A stretch of DNA of 34,144 nt from positions 1 to 34,144 of IMG/VR virus record IMGVR_UViG_3300049472_000055. One strand, written 5' to 3'. The DNA comes from a virus (Duplodnaviria; Caudoviricetes). A program made the position numbers and the translations under genes. Numbering within the stretch: position 1 is the first letter of the stretch; each line of letters opens with the position of its first letter. The notes below the pieces were generated by a model. The model was not told the DNA's origin, did not search any database, and was given only the letters and a program-made list of their open reading frames with translations. Of the stretch, positions 1 to 23,706 are shown piece by piece.

Positions 1-46
1 CCCCAATAGTCCCCACTTGTCCCCCCAAAGTATCGTAAAGTATCGT
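1..46. repeat. Short direct repeats upstream of integrase (possible att arm or regulatory sites)
   Basis: AAAGTATCGT twice in tandem (27-36, 37-46); CCCC blocks at 10-bp period (1, 11, 21); function is inferred. Confidence 0.45.
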
Positions 47-49
47 GGC

Positions 50-1114
50 ATGGGCAAACACCTGGGGTTCCGTGTCGTGCAAGAGGGTGAGCGCTGGCGC
101 GGATTCTACCGAGACGGCAAGCGCTACCGCTCCAAGACCTGGGACACGGAGGCTCTGGCCACGGCTTGGGCCAGCGGGAAGACTGCCGGCGGCAGCGTGC
201 CGGGGATCGCCCTACCCGTGGCAAAGTCTCGGGCCGATACTTCGGAGCTGGCCAAGACCTTCGTTGCGGCCCTCGACATCAAGCGCCGGTCGATCTCCCA
301 TCAGGCCAACGTCCGGCACACCCTCGACCTGATGGCAGCTGCCGTGCCGGATCTGGCTGCGCCTGATGCTCACCGGCAGATGGAGGCGTGGCTGGAGGGC
401 GTGCAGCTGGACCGGGTAGGGCGGCATCGCCGGAAGCGCAGCAAGGCCCCGAGCCCGGGCTACCGCAACCGCTTGATCGCGGAGGTCCGCGCCTTCTGCC
501 GCTGGCTGGTGCGGAAGGAGTACCTGACAGTGGATCCGAGCCGGACGCTGGAGCGGGCGACGGCACACCGGGAGATCAAGGCGCAGTTCAGCGTGGACGA
601 TGTTCGGCAGCTCTGCGCCCCGTGCGCCGACCATCCGCGGCAGCGCTGGGTGGCGCTGATGCTGCTGGCTGGGCTCCGAGCTGACGAGGCAGCAGCAATC
701 ACTTGGGCGGATCTCGTTGGCGGCCAGCTCTACGTTCGCAAGCACGCCGGCCACAGGCTCAAGCGGGGCAAGGAAAGGCTGGTCCCTCTCCAGGCACGTC
801 TAGCCGAGATTCTTGGCCCAGCGGGGCAGGGGACGGTCGCGCCGCTGACTGGAGCCCGCAGCACGGTCCAGATGGGCCGGCACTTCCGGACCTACCTGGA
901 TCACTGCGGCATCAAGCCCGGCCAGCGCACACCGCACAGCTGTCGCCACACCTACGGTGCCCTGATGATCGCCACTGGCTGCCCAGACATCCTGGTCAAG
1001 GCGTACATGGGGCATGAGGCGGTGGCGACTACAGCGGACTACGCCAAGGCCGCGCCGCTCCACGTCGAGGCGGTCAAGGGGTGGGGGATGGGGAATCTGC
1101 TGCCGGTGGCGTAG
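50..1114 (+). CDS. int: Tyrosine recombinase / phage integrase
   Basis: Catalytic set GLRADE (R), LKRGK (K), HSCRH (HxxR), MGH, ADY; ATG at 50 preferred over TTG at 17. Confidence 0.93.
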   Translation: MGKHLGFRVVQEGERWRGFYRDGKRYRSKTWDTEALATAWASGKTAGGSVPGIALPVAKSRADTSELAKTFVAALDIKRRSISHQANVRHTLDLMAAAVPDLAAPDAHRQMEAWLEGVQLDRVGRHRRKRSKAPSPGYRNRLIAEVRAFCRWLVRKEYLTVDPSRTLERATAHREIKAQFSVDDVRQLCAPCADHPRQRWVALMLLAGLRADEAAAITWADLVGGQLYVRKHAGHRLKRGKERLVPLQARLAEILGPAGQGTVAPLTGARSTVQMGRHFRTYLDHCGIKPGQRTPHSCRHTYGALMIATGCPDILVKAYMGHEAVATTADYAKAAPLHVEAVKGWGMGNLLPVA

Positions 1115-3856: not shown

Positions 3857-4102
3857 TCATTGGTTGTGTTCTTCGTTCCACTTCAGCTCAGCCGCGTAGC
3901 ACGCTGGGCAGAACCCGGCGCGGTCGTCCAGGCACGGGCCGCGCACATCACTCAGGGTCGGCTTGTTGCACCGCCGGCAGGGGGAAACCTGGATCCGCTT
4001 GCTGAATCTCTGGCCACGGCTGGCGGCGACCTCGGCTGCGCAGGCGTTGATGACGGCAACGCTCTTGTCGATCAGGCGCTGGACGCTGGCTGGCCGGCTC
4101 AT
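3857..4102 (-). CDS. Zn-finger-like hypothetical protein
   Basis: CRRC...CPAC; ATGA overlap with the upstream gene. Confidence 0.65.
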   Translation of the reverse strand: MSRPASVQRLIDKSVAVINACAAEVAASRGQRFSKRIQVSPCRRCNKPTLSDVRGPCLDDRAGFCPACYAAELKWNEEHNQ

Positions 4103-4302
4103 CCGCACACCGCCAGCCGGACGCCGTTGGCGCTGTCCAAGTAAACGTAATAGGTATCCCGGCTCAGCTTGAAAGTCAGCGGCTTGCCCCAGCCGGGCAG
4201 GACGGCGACCAGAACGGGACTGGCCAGGCCGGCGCGGGTAGCAGCCGCGAACGACGCCAGGGCGGCATCGAACAGCTTGGGGTTGAAGGCGGCGAGCGGC
4301 AT
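4099..4302 (-). CDS. Hypothetical protein, first gene of leftward operon
   Basis: GGAG RBS; directly downstream of the leftward promoter. Confidence 0.65.
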   Translation of the reverse strand: MPLAAFNPKLFDAALASFAAATRAGLASPVLVAVLPGWGKPLTFKLSRDTYYVYLDSANGVRLAVCG

Positions 4303-4329
4303 TGCTGGTTCTCCGTGGGTGACGAGCGG

Positions 4330-4358
4330 AGCTTAGTGTACGGGTTCCGTACACGCAA
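4330..4358 (-). promoter_or_regulatory. Leftward promoter with operator O1 (GTGTACGG-GTT-CCGTACAC, 4336-4354)
   Basis: Minus strand TTGCGT-17 nt-TAAGCT; perfect 8-bp-arm palindrome fills the spacer. Confidence 0.8.
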
Positions 4359-4382
4359 GAGGAATCTGGTGGCGGAATGTTG

Positions 4383-4410
4383 TTGACGTGTACGGACTCC
4401 GTACTACTGT
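4383..4410 (+). promoter_or_regulatory. Rightward promoter with operator O2 (GTACGG-ACT-CCGTAC, 4390-4404)
   Basis: TTGACG-16 nt-TACTGT; palindrome in the spacer; AAGGAG/GAGG RBS before ATG 4435. Confidence 0.8.
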
Positions 4411-4434
4411 TCCAGTGTACCAAGGAGAGGACCG

Positions 4435-4620
4435 ATGAGCTTCAAGCCCAGCAACGACGCCAAGAAGGTCTTGGCCGACGCCTACAATATGGGCCTGGTG
4501 ACCGATGAGTCGGTTGCCGACCTCGCCGCCATGGCCGACGCTGGCGACTATGCCGGCTTCAACGCCCTGATGAGCGCGGTTGCCGCCAAGCTGGACGGCC
4601 TGAAGGAGGCGATGACATGA
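4435..4620 (+). CDS. Hypothetical protein
   Basis: Strong RBS, GC3-rich codons, first gene of rightward operon. Confidence 0.8.
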   Translation: MSFKPSNDAKKVLADAYNMGLVTDESVADLAAMADAGDYAGFNALMSAVAAKLDGLKEAMT

Positions 4621-4808
4621 ACATCATCATCGACGCCGAGCAGATTCGGGAAGAAAGCTACTTCAACCTGTGCGCTATCGCCAGCGCCACGGGGTATGCC
4701 AATCCCGTGGCGGCTCTGGCCGTGACCAAGGAGCTGGTTGCGTGCGAGAAGGACGAGAACGGAAACATCACCAGCGCCCGGTTGCTGGACACCAAGGAGG
4801 AAGCATGA
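4617..4808 (+). CDS. Hypothetical protein
   Basis: AGGAGG RBS and ATGA overlap. Confidence 0.75.
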   Translation: MNIIIDAEQIREESYFNLCAIASATGYANPVAALAVTKELVACEKDENGNITSARLLDTKEEA

Positions 4809-4933
4809 AGACCACCAAGCTGGCGGCGCTGGCTGGCAGTAAGACCCTGACCACCCGGACCCTGGAGCAGGCCACGGCCATGGGGTTCAGCGTTATGGTC
4901 GTCGCCAAGCCCGTCAGCTGGAAGGCGGCATAA
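4805..4933 (+). CDS. Small hypothetical protein (MKTTKLAAL...)
   Basis: AGGAGG RBS, ATGA overlap, TAATG coupling downstream. Confidence 0.65.
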   Translation: MKTTKLAALAGSKTLTTRTLEQATAMGFSVMVVAKPVSWKAA

Positions 4934-5166
4934 TGCCCTACGCCGGCAAGTTCCGCGGCCCGTTCCCGGTCAAGGCGTTTGCCTTGGCCAGCGTGATCGT
5001 GACCGAGCCAGCCGAGCGCAATCGTTGCAACCCCGTCTGGCAGTGGGCCGTCCTGAGCGCGGCCGAGAAGCTGACCGGATGGGCCTACGCCATGACCTTC
5101 AGCGGCGAAGTCCGCAGCATGGCTGTCCCGCGCACAACCCCCATCCCCAAACCGGAGCCAACATGA
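4933..5166 (+). CDS. Hypothetical protein
   Basis: TAATG coupling; 77 aa. Confidence 0.7.
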   Translation: MPYAGKFRGPFPVKAFALASVIVTEPAERNRCNPVWQWAVLSAAEKLTGWAYAMTFSGEVRSMAVPRTTPIPKPEPT

Positions 5167-5531
5167 ACGATGATCCCAAACTCATCCCCCGCGCCAACTG
5201 GCAGACCAAGCAGCGCGGCACCAACCAGGACGAGTATGAAAAACCTGAGCTACCTGGCTATGGACGAAGCTGGACAGCACGCCACGCCCTACGCCATCGA
5301 TCTGTTGCGTGCTTGAGCACCCGCGAAATGACCGTCGAAACTCCTGACGGGGAAGAAATCGACGCCACCGTCCACTACGAATACGAAGCCCCGAGCCGTG
5401 CGCCGGATGGCTGGATGAAGGGGGCGCTGTGGATCTACAAGATTGAACGGGATGGGGTGGAAATCTACGTGTCGGATGAGGTGAAGGGGAAGCTTGAGGA
5501 TATTTTGTATGAGCGGGAGTGCGGCCGATGA
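5163..5531 (+). CDS. Chimeric ORF: 26-aa N-terminus of an interrupted gene + off-frame terL copy + unrelated small gene (STREMTVETPDG...)
   Basis: GGAG RBS and ATGA start at 5163; open through the 74-bp duplication; ends overlapping the MTase ATG. Confidence 0.6.
   Translation: MNDDPKLIPRANWQTKQRGTNQDEYEKPELPGYGRSWTARHALRHRSVACLSTREMTVETPDGEEIDATVHYEYEAPSRAPDGWMKGALWIYKIERDGVEIYVSDEVKGKLEDILYERECGR
5242..5315 (+). repeat. 74-bp exact direct repeat, copy 1 (copy 2 at 12299-12372 inside terL)
   Basis: AACCTGAGCTACCTGGCTATGGACGAAGC...CTGTTGCGTGCTTG identical at both loci by eye alignment. Confidence 0.97.
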
Positions 5532-6172
5532 ACGTCCTCGTCGCCTGTGAATCCAGCGGAACGGTGCGCGAGGCGTTCCGCAAGCTGGGGCATAACGCAT
5601 GGTCCTGCGATCTGCTGCCGTCCGATGACAACAGTCCATACCATACAGTCGGGGATGCGCGATACGTCATCGCCAACATGATCGCCAACGACGGGCGCGA
5701 CATGATACCGATCAGCCAAGCGGAGTGGGATCTGGTCATCGCCCACCCGCCTTGCACGCACCTTGCGTCCAGTGGGGCGCGGCACTTCGCTGCGAAGCAA
5801 GCCGACGGTAGGCAGCGAGAGGGTATTGACCTGTTCTTGGCCATTCGGGAATGCTGCAAGAAGAACGCCAAGAAGTGGGCAATCGAGAACCCTATCGGCA
5901 TCATGTCCTGCTTGTGGCGGAAGCCTAACCAAATAATCCACCCGTGGCAGTTCGGGCATGACGCCAGCAAGGCAACCTGTCTTTGGACATATTGCCTTCC
6001 GCCGCTAATGCACACCCGTGTGGTGGAAGGCCGGGTTGTGAATGGAAGGGTTAGATACGGAAACCAGTGCGATAGCGGGCAGAACAAGCTGCCGCCATCC
6101 AAGGACCGCTGGAAGATCCGCAGTAAGACGTACCAAGGGATTGCGGATGCGATGGCGGCCCAATGGTCTTGA
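5528..6172 (+). CDS. Phage DNA cytosine methyltransferase-like protein
   Basis: MNVLVACESSGTVREAF...WSCDL, DLVIAHPPCT (PC motif IV), IENP (motif VI), QFGH...KATCLW, RSKTYQGIADAMAAQW. Confidence 0.85.
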   Translation: MNVLVACESSGTVREAFRKLGHNAWSCDLLPSDDNSPYHTVGDARYVIANMIANDGRDMIPISQAEWDLVIAHPPCTHLASSGARHFAAKQADGRQREGIDLFLAIRECCKKNAKKWAIENPIGIMSCLWRKPNQIIHPWQFGHDASKATCLWTYCLPPLMHTRVVEGRVVNGRVRYGNQCDSGQNKLPPSKDRWKIRSKTYQGIADAMAAQWS

Positions 6173-6197
6173 CACACCTGTCTTTACGAGGCCGCTG

Positions 6198-6524
6198 ATG
6201 ATCGCTGACCTCCACCGCTGGGGATACCACCTCGTCCCCTGGTCCCGATCCCCCCGCAAGCCGATGATCCAGGGCTGGCTGGACAAGCCGACCGATCCGA
6301 CTGGGTTCTTGCGGGCCTATGGGGATGACATGGATTGGGCGGTCGTTCCGAAGAACGGGGTTGTTGTACTGGACATCGAGATGAAGGGCGGACTGGATGG
6401 CCAAGCCGAGTTCGATGCGCCGGCCGCGCCGGTCTACCTAGACTGTGCCAACGACGGCAAGGGCGGGGACATCACTCGCGACGGTGCGCCGCTGCTGACT
6501 TATGACGAATGGATGGGGGCCTGA
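6198..6524 (+). pseudogene. Truncated bifunctional primase/polymerase (Prim-Pol) N-terminus fused in frame to the C-half of the interrupted small gene
   Basis: WGYHLVPW...KPMIQGW...VVVLDIEMKGGLDG stops before the expected His motif; followed by unrelated VYLDCANDGKGGDITRDGAPLLTYDEWMGA. Confidence 0.65.
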
Positions 6525-6688
6525 TGCCCCACGTCCGCACTGAATACCACTGGCTGGCCGACTGCCAGATGTGGATGTTCGTGGTCATTGATGACGCCGA
6601 TGAAGTCTATGCCTGCGGCAGCGAAGCCGACCTGGAGATCGCGGCGAAGCGTGCCGGTAAAACGCTGGAACGACTGAAAAAACAATAG
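6524..6688 (+). CDS. Small hypothetical protein (MPHVRTEYHWLADCQMW..., 54 aa)
   Basis: Not in ORF track; TGATG coupling, translated by hand to TAG at 6686-6688. Confidence 0.65.
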   Translation: MPHVRTEYHWLADCQMWMFVVIDDADEVYACGSEADLEIAAKRAGKTLERLKKQ

Positions 6689-6749: not shown

Positions 6750-6912
6750 GCGCAGCGGCCCCTGGCAGGGACGCAGCAACGGAACCCTTCACAATGACCC
6801 TCAACAACCCCCGAAGCATCGCCAATCAAGAAGCCGGCCCGCGAGTGAAGGCGCGTGGTCTGCAAGCCAGCTTGATTGACGATGCTTCGTTTGCTGTTGG
6901 AGGCCGCTGCTG
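6750..6912 (+). ncRNA. Structured leader RNA upstream of the replication gene
   Basis: 18/19-bp stem 6812-6830 with 6871-6889; 9-bp long-range pair GCAGCGGCC (6752-6760) with GGCCGCTGC (6902-6910); further complementary words CTTCAC/GTGAAG. Confidence 0.6.
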
Positions 6913-6913
6913 A
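6794..6913 (+). CDS. 39-aa leader peptide (uORF) coupled to the replication gene
   Basis: MTLNNPRSIANQEAGPRVKARGLQASLIDDASFAVGGRC; its TGA overlaps ATG 6913; no clear RBS. Confidence 0.4.
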   Translation: MTLNNPRSIANQEAGPRVKARGLQASLIDDASFAVGGRC

Positions 6914-7728
6914 TGGCCCGTATCAGAACCGTCAAGCCTGAGTTCTTCGAAGACGAGAACCTGGCCAAGCTCTCCCCACATGCCCGGCTCCTGTTCATCG
7001 GCCTGTTCCAACTGGCCGACAAGAACGGTGTCCTGGAGAACCGGCCGGCCTGGATTCAGTCCAAGGTCTTCCCGTATGAGTCCGGGGAAGCATCGGATGT
7101 TTCCCGGTTGCTTCCCGGGTTGGTCCTGGGGAGGTACTTGGTCGAGTATGAAGTGAACGGCCGGGCCTACCTGGCTGTCCGCAACTTCTCCAAGCACCAG
7201 CGAATCACTGGTAAAGAGGCTAAGAGCAACGGGTTGCATCCGCTGCCTCCGTCAGGTGATGCGCCTGGGAAGCACCGGGGAAACACCGGGGAAGCACCCG
7301 GGGCGACTCCGGATGCCCAGGAACAGGGAACAGGGAACAGGGAACAGGGAACAGGGAACAGGGAGAATTCGGATGCGCCTGAGGCTGCGCCTCCCATCGA
7401 CCCCGAAGCCCGGTGGCCATACGAACGCGCCCTGCCCTGGGCAATCCAGATCCAGGCACTCGGGGGGAAGATCGGCTCGGGCAACTGGATGGCCTGGAAG
7501 CGGCTGAGCGAGCTGCACCCGGCATCGACCCTGGCCCGGGCAGCCGAGAGCGTGCGCGCCGATCAGCGCTGGCCCGATCAGGTCGAAATGGCGATCAAGC
7601 AAATGCCGCCGCCCGTGCGCAAGGTCGAGCGCAGGCCAGAGCCGACGCCCGAAGAACGCGAGCGCAGGCGGCAGGCGGTTGCTGAGCTGGCGAAGCGGAC
7701 TGGCCTAGCACCTGTGGGGGCAGCATGA
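6913..7728 (+). CDS. Phage replication initiator / replisome organizer-like protein
   Basis: MARIRTVKPEFF...LSPHARLLFIGL...AD..G N-terminus typical of this class; internal iterons and low-complexity linker. Confidence 0.8.
   Translation: MARIRTVKPEFFEDENLAKLSPHARLLFIGLFQLADKNGVLENRPAWIQSKVFPYESGEASDVSRLLPGLVLGRYLVEYEVNGRAYLAVRNFSKHQRITGKEAKSNGLHPLPPSGDAPGKHRGNTGEAPGATPDAQEQGTGNREQGTGNRENSDAPEAAPPIDPEARWPYERALPWAIQIQALGGKIGSGNWMAWKRLSELHPASTLARAAESVRADQRWPDQVEMAIKQMPPPVRKVERRPEPTPEERERRRQAVAELAKRTGLAPVGAA
7266..7310 (+). repeat. 11-bp iteron-like repeats (putative replication origin)
   Basis: TGGGAAGCACC, GGGGAAACACC, GGGGAAGCACC, then degenerate GGGGCGACTCC; related copy GGGGAAGCATC at 7084-7094. 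Confidence 0.7.
7320..7361 (+). repeat. Heptamer tandem repeat (GGAACAG) x6
   Basis: Six perfect copies, 42 bp, encoding EQGTGNR twice. Confidence 0.95.
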
Positions 7729-8438
7729 AGCCCCGCATCGTCCCCTCCATGGCCGAAGCGAAGGCATTGCCCGTGCAATGGACCGAGGGCGTCATCTGCA
7801 ACGCAGTGGCTGCGTATGTCGAATGGTGGCGCAACACCGTGGTGCCGAACGTCTATCTCGGACCAACTGGCCGCGAGATCGATGTGGCTGTGATGACCAA
7901 GGCTGGACTGCTGTGGGCGTTTGAGATCAAGACCAGCCTGGCCGACTGGAAGCGCGACCTAACGAAGCGCAGGTACCCGGCATGCGCTGAGCCGGCGCGG
8001 TTTTACTACGTCGTTCCCGAGACGCTGGTGCAGTGGGCTGAGCGCCCGACGTGCCATGCGTGGACAAAGTTGAGCCCAATTATTCCCGAGTGGGTTCCGA
8101 AGCACGCAGGCATCGTCTTCCTGCGCAATGACCGGCAGATGACCACTTACGACGATGGCGTTCATGTGTTCGATACACCGAAGCGCGGATACGTTCACCC
8201 ATGCAAGAGCATCCACCGTCGCCCGCTGGATCCGAAGTATCGCGGAGGTAGCATGAACATCTTCGAAGAAGTCGAAAAGCTCCCGCGGCACCACCGCCTG
8301 GCTCTGGCCGGCTACATCCTGCGCAGCGTCAAGCCCAAGGGCGATGAGAAGAAACGACTGCTGGGCAGGTACCAGACGGAGGAAGTTCACGATTACAAAC
8401 CACATGATCTCGGCGAAAGCCGCCCGGAGGGGGTCTAA
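7725..8438 (+). CDS. MmcB-like PD-(D/E)XK nuclease-fold protein, apparently fused to a second small gene
   Basis: EIDVAV...FEIKTSLADWKRD...RFYYVVP...AGI; internal GGAGGT + in-frame ATG at 8253. Confidence 0.7.
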   Translation: MKPRIVPSMAEAKALPVQWTEGVICNAVAAYVEWWRNTVVPNVYLGPTGREIDVAVMTKAGLLWAFEIKTSLADWKRDLTKRRYPACAEPARFYYVVPETLVQWAERPTCHAWTKLSPIIPEWVPKHAGIVFLRNDRQMTTYDDGVHVFDTPKRGYVHPCKSIHRRPLDPKYRGGSMNIFEEVEKLPRHHRLALAGYILRSVKPKGDEKKRLLGRYQTEEVHDYKPHDLGESRPEGV

Positions 8439-11374: not shown

Positions 11375-11400
11375 GACTTATGAGCATAACGAAAGGTACC

Positions 11401-11955
11401 ATGACGATAGGACGGCCGACGCTTTATGACCCGGACGAGCACCCCAGCGCAGTGATGCTGTTGGCTCGAAATGGTAAGACGGTTGCCGATATGGCGGAAG
11501 CCCTTGATATTGGGTTGGCTACATTCAAGCGCTGGATGATAGATCACCCTGAGTTTCGGGCCGCCCTGGAGCTGGGGCGCGAGGCTGCAGACGAACGTGT
11601 TGAACGATCGCTGTTCGAACGAGCCACAGGCTACGAACATCCTGCGGTAAAGATCCTGACTGTGAGCGGTGGCCAGGGCATGGGCAGTCACATCGAAACC
11701 GTCCCCTACACCGAGCGCTACCCGCCCGATGTCGAGGCCGCGAAGTTCTGGCTGAAGAACCGCAAGCCTGCGAAGTGGCGCGAAAAGAGCGAGGTAGAGC
11801 AGAACGTGAAGCACTACGTTGTAGAGCTTCCGCCTGCTGTTGCCGACAACGATCCACTGACCTGGGCCAAGGAAGTCCGTGCTGAGCGGATCCGCAGCGG
11901 TGAATTGAAAGAGGATCCGCCACCGCCGCCTGGTCTACCGCAGTCCAATGGATGA
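11401..11955 (+). CDS. terS: Terminase small subunit
   Basis: GRPTLYDP, HTH, WMIDHPEF, VERSLFERATGY, PPDVEAAKFWLKNRKPAKWREK; directly upstream of terL; alternative start 11380. Confidence 0.9.
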   Translation: MTIGRPTLYDPDEHPSAVMLLARNGKTVADMAEALDIGLATFKRWMIDHPEFRAALELGREAADERVERSLFERATGYEHPAVKILTVSGGQGMGSHIETVPYTERYPPDVEAAKFWLKNRKPAKWREKSEVEQNVKHYVVELPPAVADNDPLTWAKEVRAERIRSGELKEDPPPPPGLPQSNG

Positions 11956-13426
11956 CACTGAGCGAATTCTGAGGCCGAACCCTGGGCCGCAGACATGGGC
12001 GCTTCGCTGCCCTGTAGATGATCTATTGTACGGTGGCGCTCGTGGTGGTGGCAAGGGAATCTTCCTCATCCTCGACTGGCTGCGGCATGCGGCGAAGTGT
12101 GGTGGAAGGGCTCGCGGCCTGATCCTGCGCAAGTATTTGACCGACCTGAAGGACTTCATCGCAGAAACGCAGAAGTACATGCCACGCTTGGGCTGGACGT
12201 GGCGGCAGCAGGACAAGCAATGGATCGGGCCTGATGGCTCCATCCTGAACCTGAGCTACCTGGAGCGCGAGCAAGACGCCGAAGGTCAACAGGGCTGGAA
12301 CCTGAGCTACCTGGCTATGGACGAAGCTGGACAGCACGCCACGCCCTACGCCATCGATCTGTTGCGTGCTTGCCTGCGTCTGACCGGTGTTCCCGAGCAC
12401 CTGTTGCGGCTGACAGCCAACCCTGGTGGACCTGGCCACAAGTGGCTGAAGGAACGCTATGTCGATCCAGCACCGCCATCTGTGCCCCATAGCGGTGTGA
12501 TCACCCTCCCGACTGGGGAGCGCGTGACCTACCAGCGTGTGTTCATACCAGCCCGACTGCGCGACAACCCGCTTTGTGACACCGCCGAGTACCGCAAGAA
12601 CCTGTTCTTGTCGGCCGGCGGCAGAGACTGGCTGGTCAAGGCGTGGCTGGAAGGTGACTGGAACGTCCAGCCTGATGGCGGCATCTTCGACGTGGACAAG
12701 ATCCAGTTCGGTGAGCCGCCGATCCTGGTGCCACTGGGCGGTCTGCCTCGCTACGGGGCCCCGCTCATTGAGCGCATCTGGCAGGGCTGGGATACGGCAT
12801 TCACGGTCAAGACCACGAACGACGAATGCGCTGGCCTGACCGTTGGTCGCGACGATCGGGCGCGGTTCTGGCTGCTGAACCTGGAGCATGGGCACTGGGA
12901 CACGGGCACGTCACCGCTCAAGATCATGGAGCAGCAACGCCTGTGGAACGCCATGCATGTGATGCTGGAAGGGGGTCCGGCCGGGCTCGCCATTGAGCCC
13001 ACCATCCAGGACTTGCGCCACCGCTCCATGCTGGGCGACAAGCCGCAGCACTTCGCTTTCGATCTCGTCAGCCACATGAGCGACAAGGTGGCCAAGAACA
13101 CCGCCTTTGCCTACGCCGTGAACCAGGGCCAAGTGTGGGTTGGCGGCACCAGGGAGAACCCGCCGCATTGGTGGCCCTACCTGCGCGACCAGCTGCTGAC
13201 CTTCAGCGGCAAGGACGGCATCCCAGATGACTGCGTTGATGCCGGTGGCGTGGCCTTCCGCGAGCTGCACCGCATCCTGGCAGCTGCACCGACCGAGCAG
13301 GAGGTCGGCCCACGCAAGGACGCCCTGCGGCCGGACATCCAGGCTCGCGTGGCCGAGGTCCGCGCCCGTCTTCCCCAGACCACCGGCGGCAGCGATGCAC
13401 CGCGCCGGATGTTCGGTCCCAGGTAA
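11948..13426 (+). CDS. terL: Terminase large subunit
   Basis: Walker A YGGARGGGKG, Walker B YLAMDEA, LTANPGGPGHKW, nuclease GWDTA and DDCVDA. Confidence 0.95.
   Translation: MDDTERILRPNPGPQTWALRCPVDDLLYGGARGGGKGIFLILDWLRHAAKCGGRARGLILRKYLTDLKDFIAETQKYMPRLGWTWRQQDKQWIGPDGSILNLSYLEREQDAEGQQGWNLSYLAMDEAGQHATPYAIDLLRACLRLTGVPEHLLRLTANPGGPGHKWLKERYVDPAPPSVPHSGVITLPTGERVTYQRVFIPARLRDNPLCDTAEYRKNLFLSAGGRDWLVKAWLEGDWNVQPDGGIFDVDKIQFGEPPILVPLGGLPRYGAPLIERIWQGWDTAFTVKTTNDECAGLTVGRDDRARFWLLNLEHGHWDTGTSPLKIMEQQRLWNAMHVMLEGGPAGLAIEPTIQDLRHRSMLGDKPQHFAFDLVSHMSDKVAKNTAFAYAVNQGQVWVGGTRENPPHWWPYLRDQLLTFSGKDGIPDDCVDAGGVAFRELHRILAAAPTEQEVGPRKDALRPDIQARVAEVRARLPQTTGGSDAPRRMFGPR
12299..12372 (+). repeat. 74-bp exact direct repeat, copy 2 (terL Walker B region)
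   Basis: Identical to 5242-5315. Confidence 0.97.
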
Positions 13427-22521: not shown

Positions 22522-23706
22522 ATGGCTGGATTCTCAGGACTCGACAACCGGCTGAACAGCATGTCGGCGCTTGGCAAGCGGTGGCAGCAAATGATGTCTA
22601 AGCAGACCAACCCGACCGCAGCAGCGGTGGCCAACGAATGGCACACCCTGTTCCGCGGCGGCGGCAATCCGCCGGCCGATGCGATCTTCGATGCCGGCAC
22701 GAACCTGTTGTTCCAGGCGCTGACCGACCAGACGCCCAACGCCGGCAGCCTGTACCACGGCGGCGACGTGGGCGCGGCCGGCGATGACTTCAAGATCCTG
22801 GAGACGGCGATGGCGAACACCGCCGCCGGTACGGTGGTCCCGGCCTGGGTCCAACTGATCGACGTGCTGGGCTTCATCCGCGTGACCACCGTCACCACGA
22901 CCACCGCGCAGACGGTCATCTGGCCATACAACGACGGCACGGCGACCGGCGGCGGCGAAGCCGTGACCTTCTCGTCGTCGAGCGGACTGCTGGGAACGTA
23001 CACCAACGATATTCAGAACCTCAGCAAGGTCCGTTTCCGCAACAGCGGCGGCGCCCTGCCCACCGGCCTGGTCGCCGGAACGGACTACTACACCATCCGC
23101 GTGACGGCCACCACCTGCCGCTTCGCCACCAGCCGCGCCAACGCCATCGCCAGTACGGCTATCGCCTTCACCGACGCCGGCAGCGGAACCAACGTCCTCG
23201 ACGTGCGCCTGCCGCGCTACTCGGACGGTGTTGGCGTTGATTGCATGTTCTTCAACCCGTCGACCACCGCGCTGGGCGCCGGCACCCCGGCCCTGACCAT
23301 CGGTTATCAGAACGGCGCTGGCGTGACCGCCAGAGCCACGCCGACCACCCCCAGCGCACCTGTGGGCAAGACGGCAGCGACGGCCAGCCACATCCTGTGG
23401 ACCGGCGCGACCGGCGCCGGCAAGTTCGGCCCAGCGATCCCGCTGCAAGGCGCCGACAGCGGCATACGCAGCGTGCAGAACGTGCGCAACAGCGCGACCT
23501 ACACGTCCGGTTCTTACACCGTGGCGCTGTACAAGCGCCTAGGCGAACCGATCCCGCTGCAAGTCCTTGGTCAGGCCGTGCCGTGGCGCTTCGACGGTGG
23601 CGTGCGCGTCTTCGACGGCGCCGCCATCTACGGCATCGTCAAGTCTGGTGTGGCGACCCCGGCCAACTCGCTGATCGAAGTGAATCTCGACTTCGGCTGG
23701 GCCTGA
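22522..23706 (+). CDS. Putative virion protein, paralog B with inserted domain
   Basis: GGAG RBS; RLPRYSDGVGV...YQNGAGVT...PLQGADSGIRSVQ. Confidence 0.8.
   Translation: MAGFSGLDNRLNSMSALGKRWQQMMSKQTNPTAAAVANEWHTLFRGGGNPPADAIFDAGTNLLFQALTDQTPNAGSLYHGGDVGAAGDDFKILETAMANTAAGTVVPAWVQLIDVLGFIRVTTVTTTTAQTVIWPYNDGTATGGGEAVTFSSSSGLLGTYTNDIQNLSKVRFRNSGGALPTGLVAGTDYYTIRVTATTCRFATSRANAIASTAIAFTDAGSGTNVLDVRLPRYSDGVGVDCMFFNPSTTALGAGTPALTIGYQNGAGVTARATPTTPSAPVGKTAATASHILWTGATGAGKFGPAIPLQGADSGIRSVQNVRNSATYTSGSYTVALYKRLGEPIPLQVLGQAVPWRFDGGVRVFDGAAIYGIVKSGVATPANSLIEVNLDFGWA

Follow-up and report, generated by a model that had tools for sequence, protein, structure and literature searches.

An exact copy of part of an uncultured phage's own terminase gene opens a patchwork insert that splits one of its small genes

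How does a 56-codon phage gene come to be split by more than a kilobase of DNA that is itself made of gene fragments, and by what kind of event were the pieces joined? The question is raised by a locus in the 34,144-base stretch of DNA analyzed here (hereafter the window), which is an entire virus record, classed as linear and ~42% complete. An initial annotation of this locus had proposed the recent, non-homologous capture of a methyltransferase, kept because the insert is non-polar. We examined where the break lies, what each piece is, how well the joints are supported, and which mechanism fits them.

The phage looks like a temperate, tailed one, judging by its genes: tail and portal genes are present in the record, in addition to those listed in Table 1. 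A genome scan on the host question gave one weak hit only. Three repeat features lie elsewhere in the window. A 23-nt motif occurs in four copies (13425, 16967, 25069, and 33109; 74–100% alike) between late genes, and these are possibly late-promoter or activator sites. Tandem repeats of 7 bp at 7320–7368, within the replication initiator gene and common to other phages of the same sequencing run, are likely origin iterons. Directly upstream of the initiator gene is an inverted repeat (6802–6899) with 29-nt arms that are 83% complementary and a 40-nt loop.

The split gene and its target site

The interrupted gene is translated as 26 amino acids from 5163–5240, and as 30 amino acids plus a stop codon from 6432–6524. 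When the first 40 codons from 5163 were used as the query, intact 56-aa proteins were retrieved (P0001 and P0002, two of two candidates). Identity to P0001 is 24/26 for the 5′ half and 25/29 for the 3′ half (counted from 6435), and in locus L092 both halves align abutting one another, at 8001–8078 and then 8079–8168. The initial annotation had likened the joined 56-aa peptide to a small phage family and had suggested a BLASTP check; by the intact full-length relatives and the adjoining halves in family loci, this part of it was borne out. Its reading that the gene is coupled to its neighbors at both ends likewise agrees with the overlaps in the sequence (ATGA at 5163–5166 and TGATG at 6522–6526).

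The family was found in 378 viral stretches. Clustering at 50% identity gives 145 groups, and the right fusion of the window itself makes up one of them (P0063). Its proteins are ~50–90 aa long with many near-invariant residues, and some are fused to the end of longer proteins (P0004, P0065). No Pfam family was common to 60 members, nor was a PHROG; the product falls only in unnamed Atlas clusters, and its model (pLDDT 80) gave no match in a fold search. We fetched 110 family loci through searches for the best 80 hits, a procedure that favors intact genes. Both halves are matched in 100 of them (75 distinct gene sequences), and in all 100 the halves are exactly one codon apart. Among the remaining ten, contig ends truncate three and the N-terminus has diverged in five; in the last two (L112 and L115) one half is unrelated, and these could be old recombinants. 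None of the 110 loci, in this sample biased to intact genes, holds a family gene split by an insert.

The codon between the halves fixes the probable position of the break. It is Ile in 94 of the 100 loci, Val in five and Leu in one; among 148 aligned protein rows, Ile is found in 111 and Val in 4. The A at 5241 followed by the TC at 6433–6434 makes an Ile codon and, since homologs favor Ile at codon 27, the insert likely spans 5242–6432 (1191 bp). In this register the target has neither lost nor duplicated a base, and the insert begins on the first base of the terL copy described below. The initial annotation had placed it at 5241–6431, where codon 27 becomes Val and one untemplated A stands ahead of the terL copy; its length of 1191 bp stands, whereas its register should likely move one base to the right. 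Either register fits end-joining.

Table 1. Features of the window that bear on the insert
Feature	Position	Strand	Remarks
Tyrosine integrase	2–1114		profile match
Leftward gene block, then rightward series of small early genes	rightward series from ~4435		
5′ part of split 56-codon accessory gene	5163–5241	+	26 codons plus, likely, first base of codon 27
Insert piece 1	5242–5315	+	exact 74-bp copy of own terL, 12299–12372
Insert piece 2a, small ORF	5316–5531	+	71 codons open from the joint; may be 5′-clipped
Insert piece 2b, short C5-cytosine-methyltransferase-like gene	5528–6172	+	214 aa, full-length; phrog_757
Insert piece 2c, first 68 codons of ~250-aa stand-alone Prim-Pol	6198–6401	+	PF09250 family; cut short
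Insert piece 3 (likely)	6402–6432	+	25–31 GC-rich bases; no fit to Prim-Pol family
3′ part of split gene	6433–6524	+	in frame with Prim-Pol stub
Replication initiator	6913–7728
terS	11380–11955
terL, intact	11948–13426
Source of piece 1	12299–12372	+	inside intact terL gene

The pieces of the insert

The first piece is the Walker B region of terL (codons 118–142), which is read off-frame in the left fusion. It is identical to its source at 74 of 74 bases, and the match is not extendable by a single base at either end. The initial annotation had recognized a terL fragment here, correctly, and was silent on its origin in the phage's own genome, which is the most informative fact about the insert. 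The pair is the only long exact dispersed repeat within the window, and no exact dispersed repeat of at least 40 nt was present in 210 other fetched loci (1.71 Mb), which are shorter and partly redundant and in which assemblers will have tended to break at repeats. With no change in 74 bases, divergence is below 4% (95% bound). Because the scrap is a perfect copy of the phage's own terL, the sequence supports an insertion that is recent and happened in this lineage. At the joint between target and terL there is no shared base: of the run of five A found there, the target accounts for three and terL for two.

Several features of the scrap and its source deserve mention in their own right. The source gene has an internal exact direct repeat of 17 nt (12247–12263 and 12298–12314, 51 bp apart), which encodes the same five residues twice and is absent from the 14 relatives shown; the captured 74-mer begins on the second base of the second copy. 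The 74-mer and its source themselves form direct repeats 7057 bp apart. Recombination between these would remove the initiator gene together with terS and the beginning of terL, so the insert brings with it a built-in instability. In addition, an ATG at 5236 opens a 26-codon ORF (5236–5316) that reads the terL scrap in its own frame, Walker B included, to a stop created by the 5315/5316 joint; it has no clear SD motif and is probably due to chance.

The second piece (~1.09 kb) opens with a small ORF that is in frame with the 5′ half of the split gene. A sequence search returned no homolog of this ORF except itself, and by features it bears a weak likeness to unnamed phage proteins (0.92, with recognition below threshold). 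The methyltransferase-like gene that follows matches phrog_757 over residues 1–213 (E = 2.1e-66), and has the PPC and ENP motifs with C76 and E120, but no Pfam, NCBIfam, or PDB sequence match. GenBank phage records with a gene of this kind number 1360, and in 160 of these the match spans over 80% of the window's gene. The Prim-Pol stub is 63–86% identical to Prim-Pols of 220–252 aa (13 matches among 30 candidates). Its alignment holds to codon 68 and departs after GGLDG; positions 71–72 are Asp-Leu in nine of nine aligned homologs, and Glu-Phe in the window. The gene content given in the initial annotation, namely a small gene, an intact methyltransferase-like gene, and a truncated Prim-Pol, is thus upheld by the full-length phrog_757 match and by the cut after about codon 68 of ~250.

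Because the Prim-Pol alignment is lost after codon 68 and the Asp-Leu is missing, the last 25–31 bases, to judge from the alignment, are probably a separate third piece (6402–6432). A source for this tail was sought without success: it has no match with three or fewer mismatches elsewhere in the window and no exact match in viral contigs. The best match in the window (23402–23417, 15 of 16 nt) is at chance level, and one contig of run X1 matches from 6405, although a short GC-rich match in 3 Gb may be chance as well. Only 25 bases of the insert (6173–6197) are untranslated. An SD-like motif was recognized for the methyltransferase-like gene, for the Prim-Pol stub, and for the gene at 6524, while the small ORF has no clear one.

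Where might piece 2 have come from? It has no second copy in the record, and its contigs are at single-copy depth. Stand-alone Prim-Pols of ~250 aa with a separate helicase-like gene after them are seen at 3992–4753 of locus L117 and among P0008–P0017, and among GenBank phage records none matches this family across 80% of its length. The Prim-Pol of L117 sits in a helicase/Prim-Pol replication block, whereas the window phage uses an initiator protein instead. Based on its single occurrence, the single-copy depth, and the replication-block context in L117, we infer that piece 2 was likely derived from another phage. Composition gives no signal of foreignness: the GC of the insert genes (0.57–0.62) and their GC3 (0.71–0.79) are inside the range of the phage's own genes.

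A donor carrying the small ORF, the methyltransferase-like gene, and the Prim-Pol together was not found, as the methyltransferase was matched at 0 of 15 Prim-Pol loci and the Prim-Pol at 0 of 81 methyltransferase loci. Since no locus held both, piece 2 may itself be a mosaic. Close donors of the single genes were not found either. The best methyltransferase locus (L012) is 78% identical in amino acids, and 84% in DNA over the first 431 bp, with another gene order; the best Prim-Pol loci (L117 and L118) are 64% identical, and P0008 came without a viral locus. A small gene ahead of the Prim-Pol in L117 looks by eye like the small ORF, but the BLASTP match (E = 0.51) was not counted. Our searches, in collections that may leave out records very near the window, recovered no empty-site phage or close relative, the best terL relatives being 33–45% identical, and the small ORFs flanking the insert had no match under E = 0.05 in any fetched locus.

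How the pieces were joined

Contig evidence on the joints comes from one run of a freshwater sediment metagenome, possibly the source sample, of which ~80% was read. The right joint (6432/6433) lies 207 and 904 bases inside one contig (6226–7336), which has no mismatch. The 74-mer is a separate contig that starts exactly at 5242, and its depth of 22.6 is about the sum of those of the two paths that leave it, one continuing from 5316 (10.7) and the other in terL (11.2). Contig depth does not amount to a copy number, but this is how two real copies would be expected to look. Joint 5315/5316 is supported in part, by a 30-nt overlap plus this depth, and the left joint (5241/5242) is not covered by the contigs read; the gap from 4000 to 5241 was not counted as evidence. 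Could the assembler have joined unrelated pieces through the 74-bp repeat? The lack of a listed contig at the left joint, the fact that the sole run found may be the source sample itself, and an overlap at 5315/5316 that is under the 31-nt bridging rule would all allow it. However, such an artefact would not account for a right joint well inside one contig or for the exact start and summed depth of the 74-mer contig, and a mis-join would not leave the halves of a single gene precisely in register across 1191 bp. We consider it highly improbable.

Nor does the insert resemble a mobile element such as an insertion sequence, a transposon, or an MPME-type element. No transposase or element recombinase family was found for any insert ORF in Pfam or PHROGs (two ORFs were also blank in NCBIfam), and joint sequences, self-BLAST, and a target that rebuilds without gain gave no terminal inverted repeats or target-site duplication, in agreement with the initial annotation. 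An intron or intein was rejected, as there is no Rfam match at gathering score in the window, the frame of the host gene meets a stop at 5529–5531, and no intein family is matched. We also asked if the small gene might hold a recombination site at which the integrase or another enzyme collects cassettes. The phage does encode a tyrosine integrase, and an MmcB-like nuclease is located near the site, but the insert has no duplicated core or inverted ends, its pieces end mid-gene (the Prim-Pol being cut within its reading frame), the window has no Rfam element, and no split gene occurred among the 110 family loci, intact-biased as these are. An integron-like cassette was rejected on these grounds, and a dedicated capture system or hotspot of any kind seems very improbable to us.

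The absence of a shared base, the lack of mobile-element marks, and pieces that end mid-gene together fit the ligation of loose fragments into a break. We therefore favor, with somewhat better than even confidence, the view that the insert is a recent one-off repair scar, formed when two or three loose DNA pieces were end-joined without the aid of homology. A double-strand break would have occurred in the small accessory gene while a co-infecting phage or a co-resident prophage supplied the foreign block, and the break would have been sealed with the 74-bp terL scrap, the ~1.09-kb block, and probably ~30 bases from another source, perhaps by a Ku/LigD-like host pathway or another blunt-end pathway. 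The product would have survived if the gene that was hit is dispensable and the open frames keep the early operon translated; the methyltransferase may also protect from host restriction, which is a guess. End-joining is favored by a target rebuilt without loss or duplication, as measured against the 100 loci with halves one codon apart, by the homology-free joint at the sole place where both parents are known, and by a foreign block that ends mid-gene, as a broken fragment would. Against it, no Ku-like gene was seen among the 47 ORFs scanned in this ~42% complete record, and microhomology could be present on the donor side at the remaining joints. The sense orientation of all pieces is equally explained by template switching, no donor combining the small ORF, methyltransferase and Prim-Pol was found, the left joint is absent from the contigs, and this is one event in one sample.

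The main rival to end-joining is replicative template switching, in which a fork stalled in the small gene would have moved to terL ~5.9 kb downstream, then to the DNA of a co-infecting phage, and back to the exact base of departure, guided by microhomologies of 1–3 bases and assisted by a phage annealing recombinase or an AEP/Prim-Pol enzyme. The co-oriented pieces and a terL that was copied rather than removed speak for this, as does the start of the copy one base into the second 17-nt terL repeat (12247/12298), a possible slippage site. Phage precedents exist as well, since T4 is reported to join broken ends at minihomologies of 3–13 nt (PMC8262927) and many mosaics to be driven by Rad52-like recombinases (PMC3945230). 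However, the T4 repair, as described in that report, yielded deletions (PMC8262927). At the target/terL joint, moreover, both parents are known, and the five-A run is fully explained by their sum. Return to the exact base without loss or gain would also be unusual for template switching, a mechanism that we regard as unlikely here. In a stepwise history, the foreign block would have arrived on its own and out of frame, and a terL scrap added afterward would have been selected for bringing the 5′ half back into frame with the small ORF. This has one attraction: without the 74 bases the 5′ half meets a stop within ~10 codons, and with them it reads through. It nevertheless calls for two rare insertions at one and the same base. 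With a single event, this left frame arises in ~21% of random cases, and the methyltransferase-like gene carries its own SD-like motif, so that we judge such a history quite improbable.

We return to the proposed end-joining scar and to the question of why it was kept. Both fusions are open (5163–5531, 122 aa; 6198–6524, 108 aa), just as the initial annotation had stated. In a simulation with random pieces of the window, an open, in-frame join arose in 21% of cases on the left, in 27% on the right, and on both sides in 5.7%, or 2.8% when donor orientation was counted; as a post-hoc test of a single event, these figures hint at a filter for translated products. That the insert was kept because it is non-polar is no more than plausible, given a chance of ~5.7% that both joins are open. 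The methyltransferase-like gene and the gene after the insert have SD-like motifs of their own. No promoter or terminator signal above that of shuffled sequences bears on the insert. If the record is a decaying prophage, no selection at all would be required (PMC3945230, on defective prophages). As for the recent, non-homologous capture proposed initially, the exact self-copy, the intact target, and the joint without a shared base agree with it, and the capture of a methyltransferase-like gene is borne out at the level of gene content.

Relation to known systems

Non-sequence-directed recombination is the standard proposal for phage mosaicism (review PMC9262239, citing Pedulla 2003 and Morris 2008 on phage Giles), and De Paepe et al. 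describe ~70% of recent mosaics as having no trace of homologous recombination, leaving their origin open in that account (PMC3945230). The kind of event is therefore already known. The insert in the window adds a fresh case, unusual in one respect, and shows no new dedicated system. In the open-licence literature, we came across no natural phage described as having an insert that opens on an exact piece of one of its own genes. Most mosaic boundaries are too old to read. In the window, the joint is fresh, the target can be rebuilt to the base from relatives, and one parent is in the same genome, so that the chemistry of the joint (no shared base, no loss) can be read directly, albeit for one event in one uncultured phage. 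The case suggests a simple screen for short exact self-copies at insert edges. We tentatively raise the possibility, which we hold to be rather less than even, that multi-fragment end-joining is a route to mosaicism: two phage genomes would be broken up in one cell, host repair would stitch fragments of both, the recipient's own genes among them, into a break, and frame selection would retain the few translated products. If this were true, short exact self-repeats edging a foreign block would be a signature searchable across viral metagenomes.

The methyltransferase-like gene has its closest known counterparts in the short Dcm-like C5 methyltransferases of phages, which are likewise ~200–240 aa long with a PPC cysteine and an ENP glutamate at similar spacing (C76 and E120 in the window, C82 and E128 in K42). 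Its match to Dcm-type genes, other than K42 Dcm, of E. coli and Klebsiella phages is partial (~27–44% over residues ~68–158), and its activity is a prediction. K42 Dcm, which belongs to a distantly related class in E. coli siphophages, is reported to methylate cytosine and also to trigger the retron Ec86 defence (bioRxiv 10.1101/2023.08.16.553469), so that such a gene can cost as well as help.

The insert shares with illegitimate recombination, as reviewed, the joining of foreign DNA without homology or a mobile element and the presence of gene fragments at the ends; the surviving boundaries described in the review are, however, usually old and at gene or domain edges (PMC9262239), whereas those in the window are mid-gene, fresh, rebuildable to the base, and accompanied by a scrap of the recipient's own terL. 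A closer parallel for the proposed joining is found in Sinorhizobium meliloti, where Ku/LigD NHEJ puts heterologous DNA into a chromosomal break, with tandem fragments in 2 of 285 clones and with the 1-nt additions at blunt ends that are typical of bacterial NHEJ (PMC6379672); in Mycobacterium, too, NHEJ is reported to work on phage DNA (PMC12848934). The Sinorhizobium case is alike in that DNA enters a break without homology, that fragments can be taken up in tandem, and that single nucleotides are added at blunt ends. It concerns, however, a bacterial chromosome with an engineered I-SceI cut, and the window a natural phage. Finally, Rad52-like recombination (PMC3945230) and T4 minihomology end-joining (PMC8262927) resemble the present case in the recent exchange of small fragments among temperate phages and in the repair of broken phage DNA, respectively. 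As described in these sources, they need flanking similarity or repeats of 3–13 nt and replace or delete DNA, whereas in the window no part of the target is lost and no base is shared at the joint for which both parents are known.
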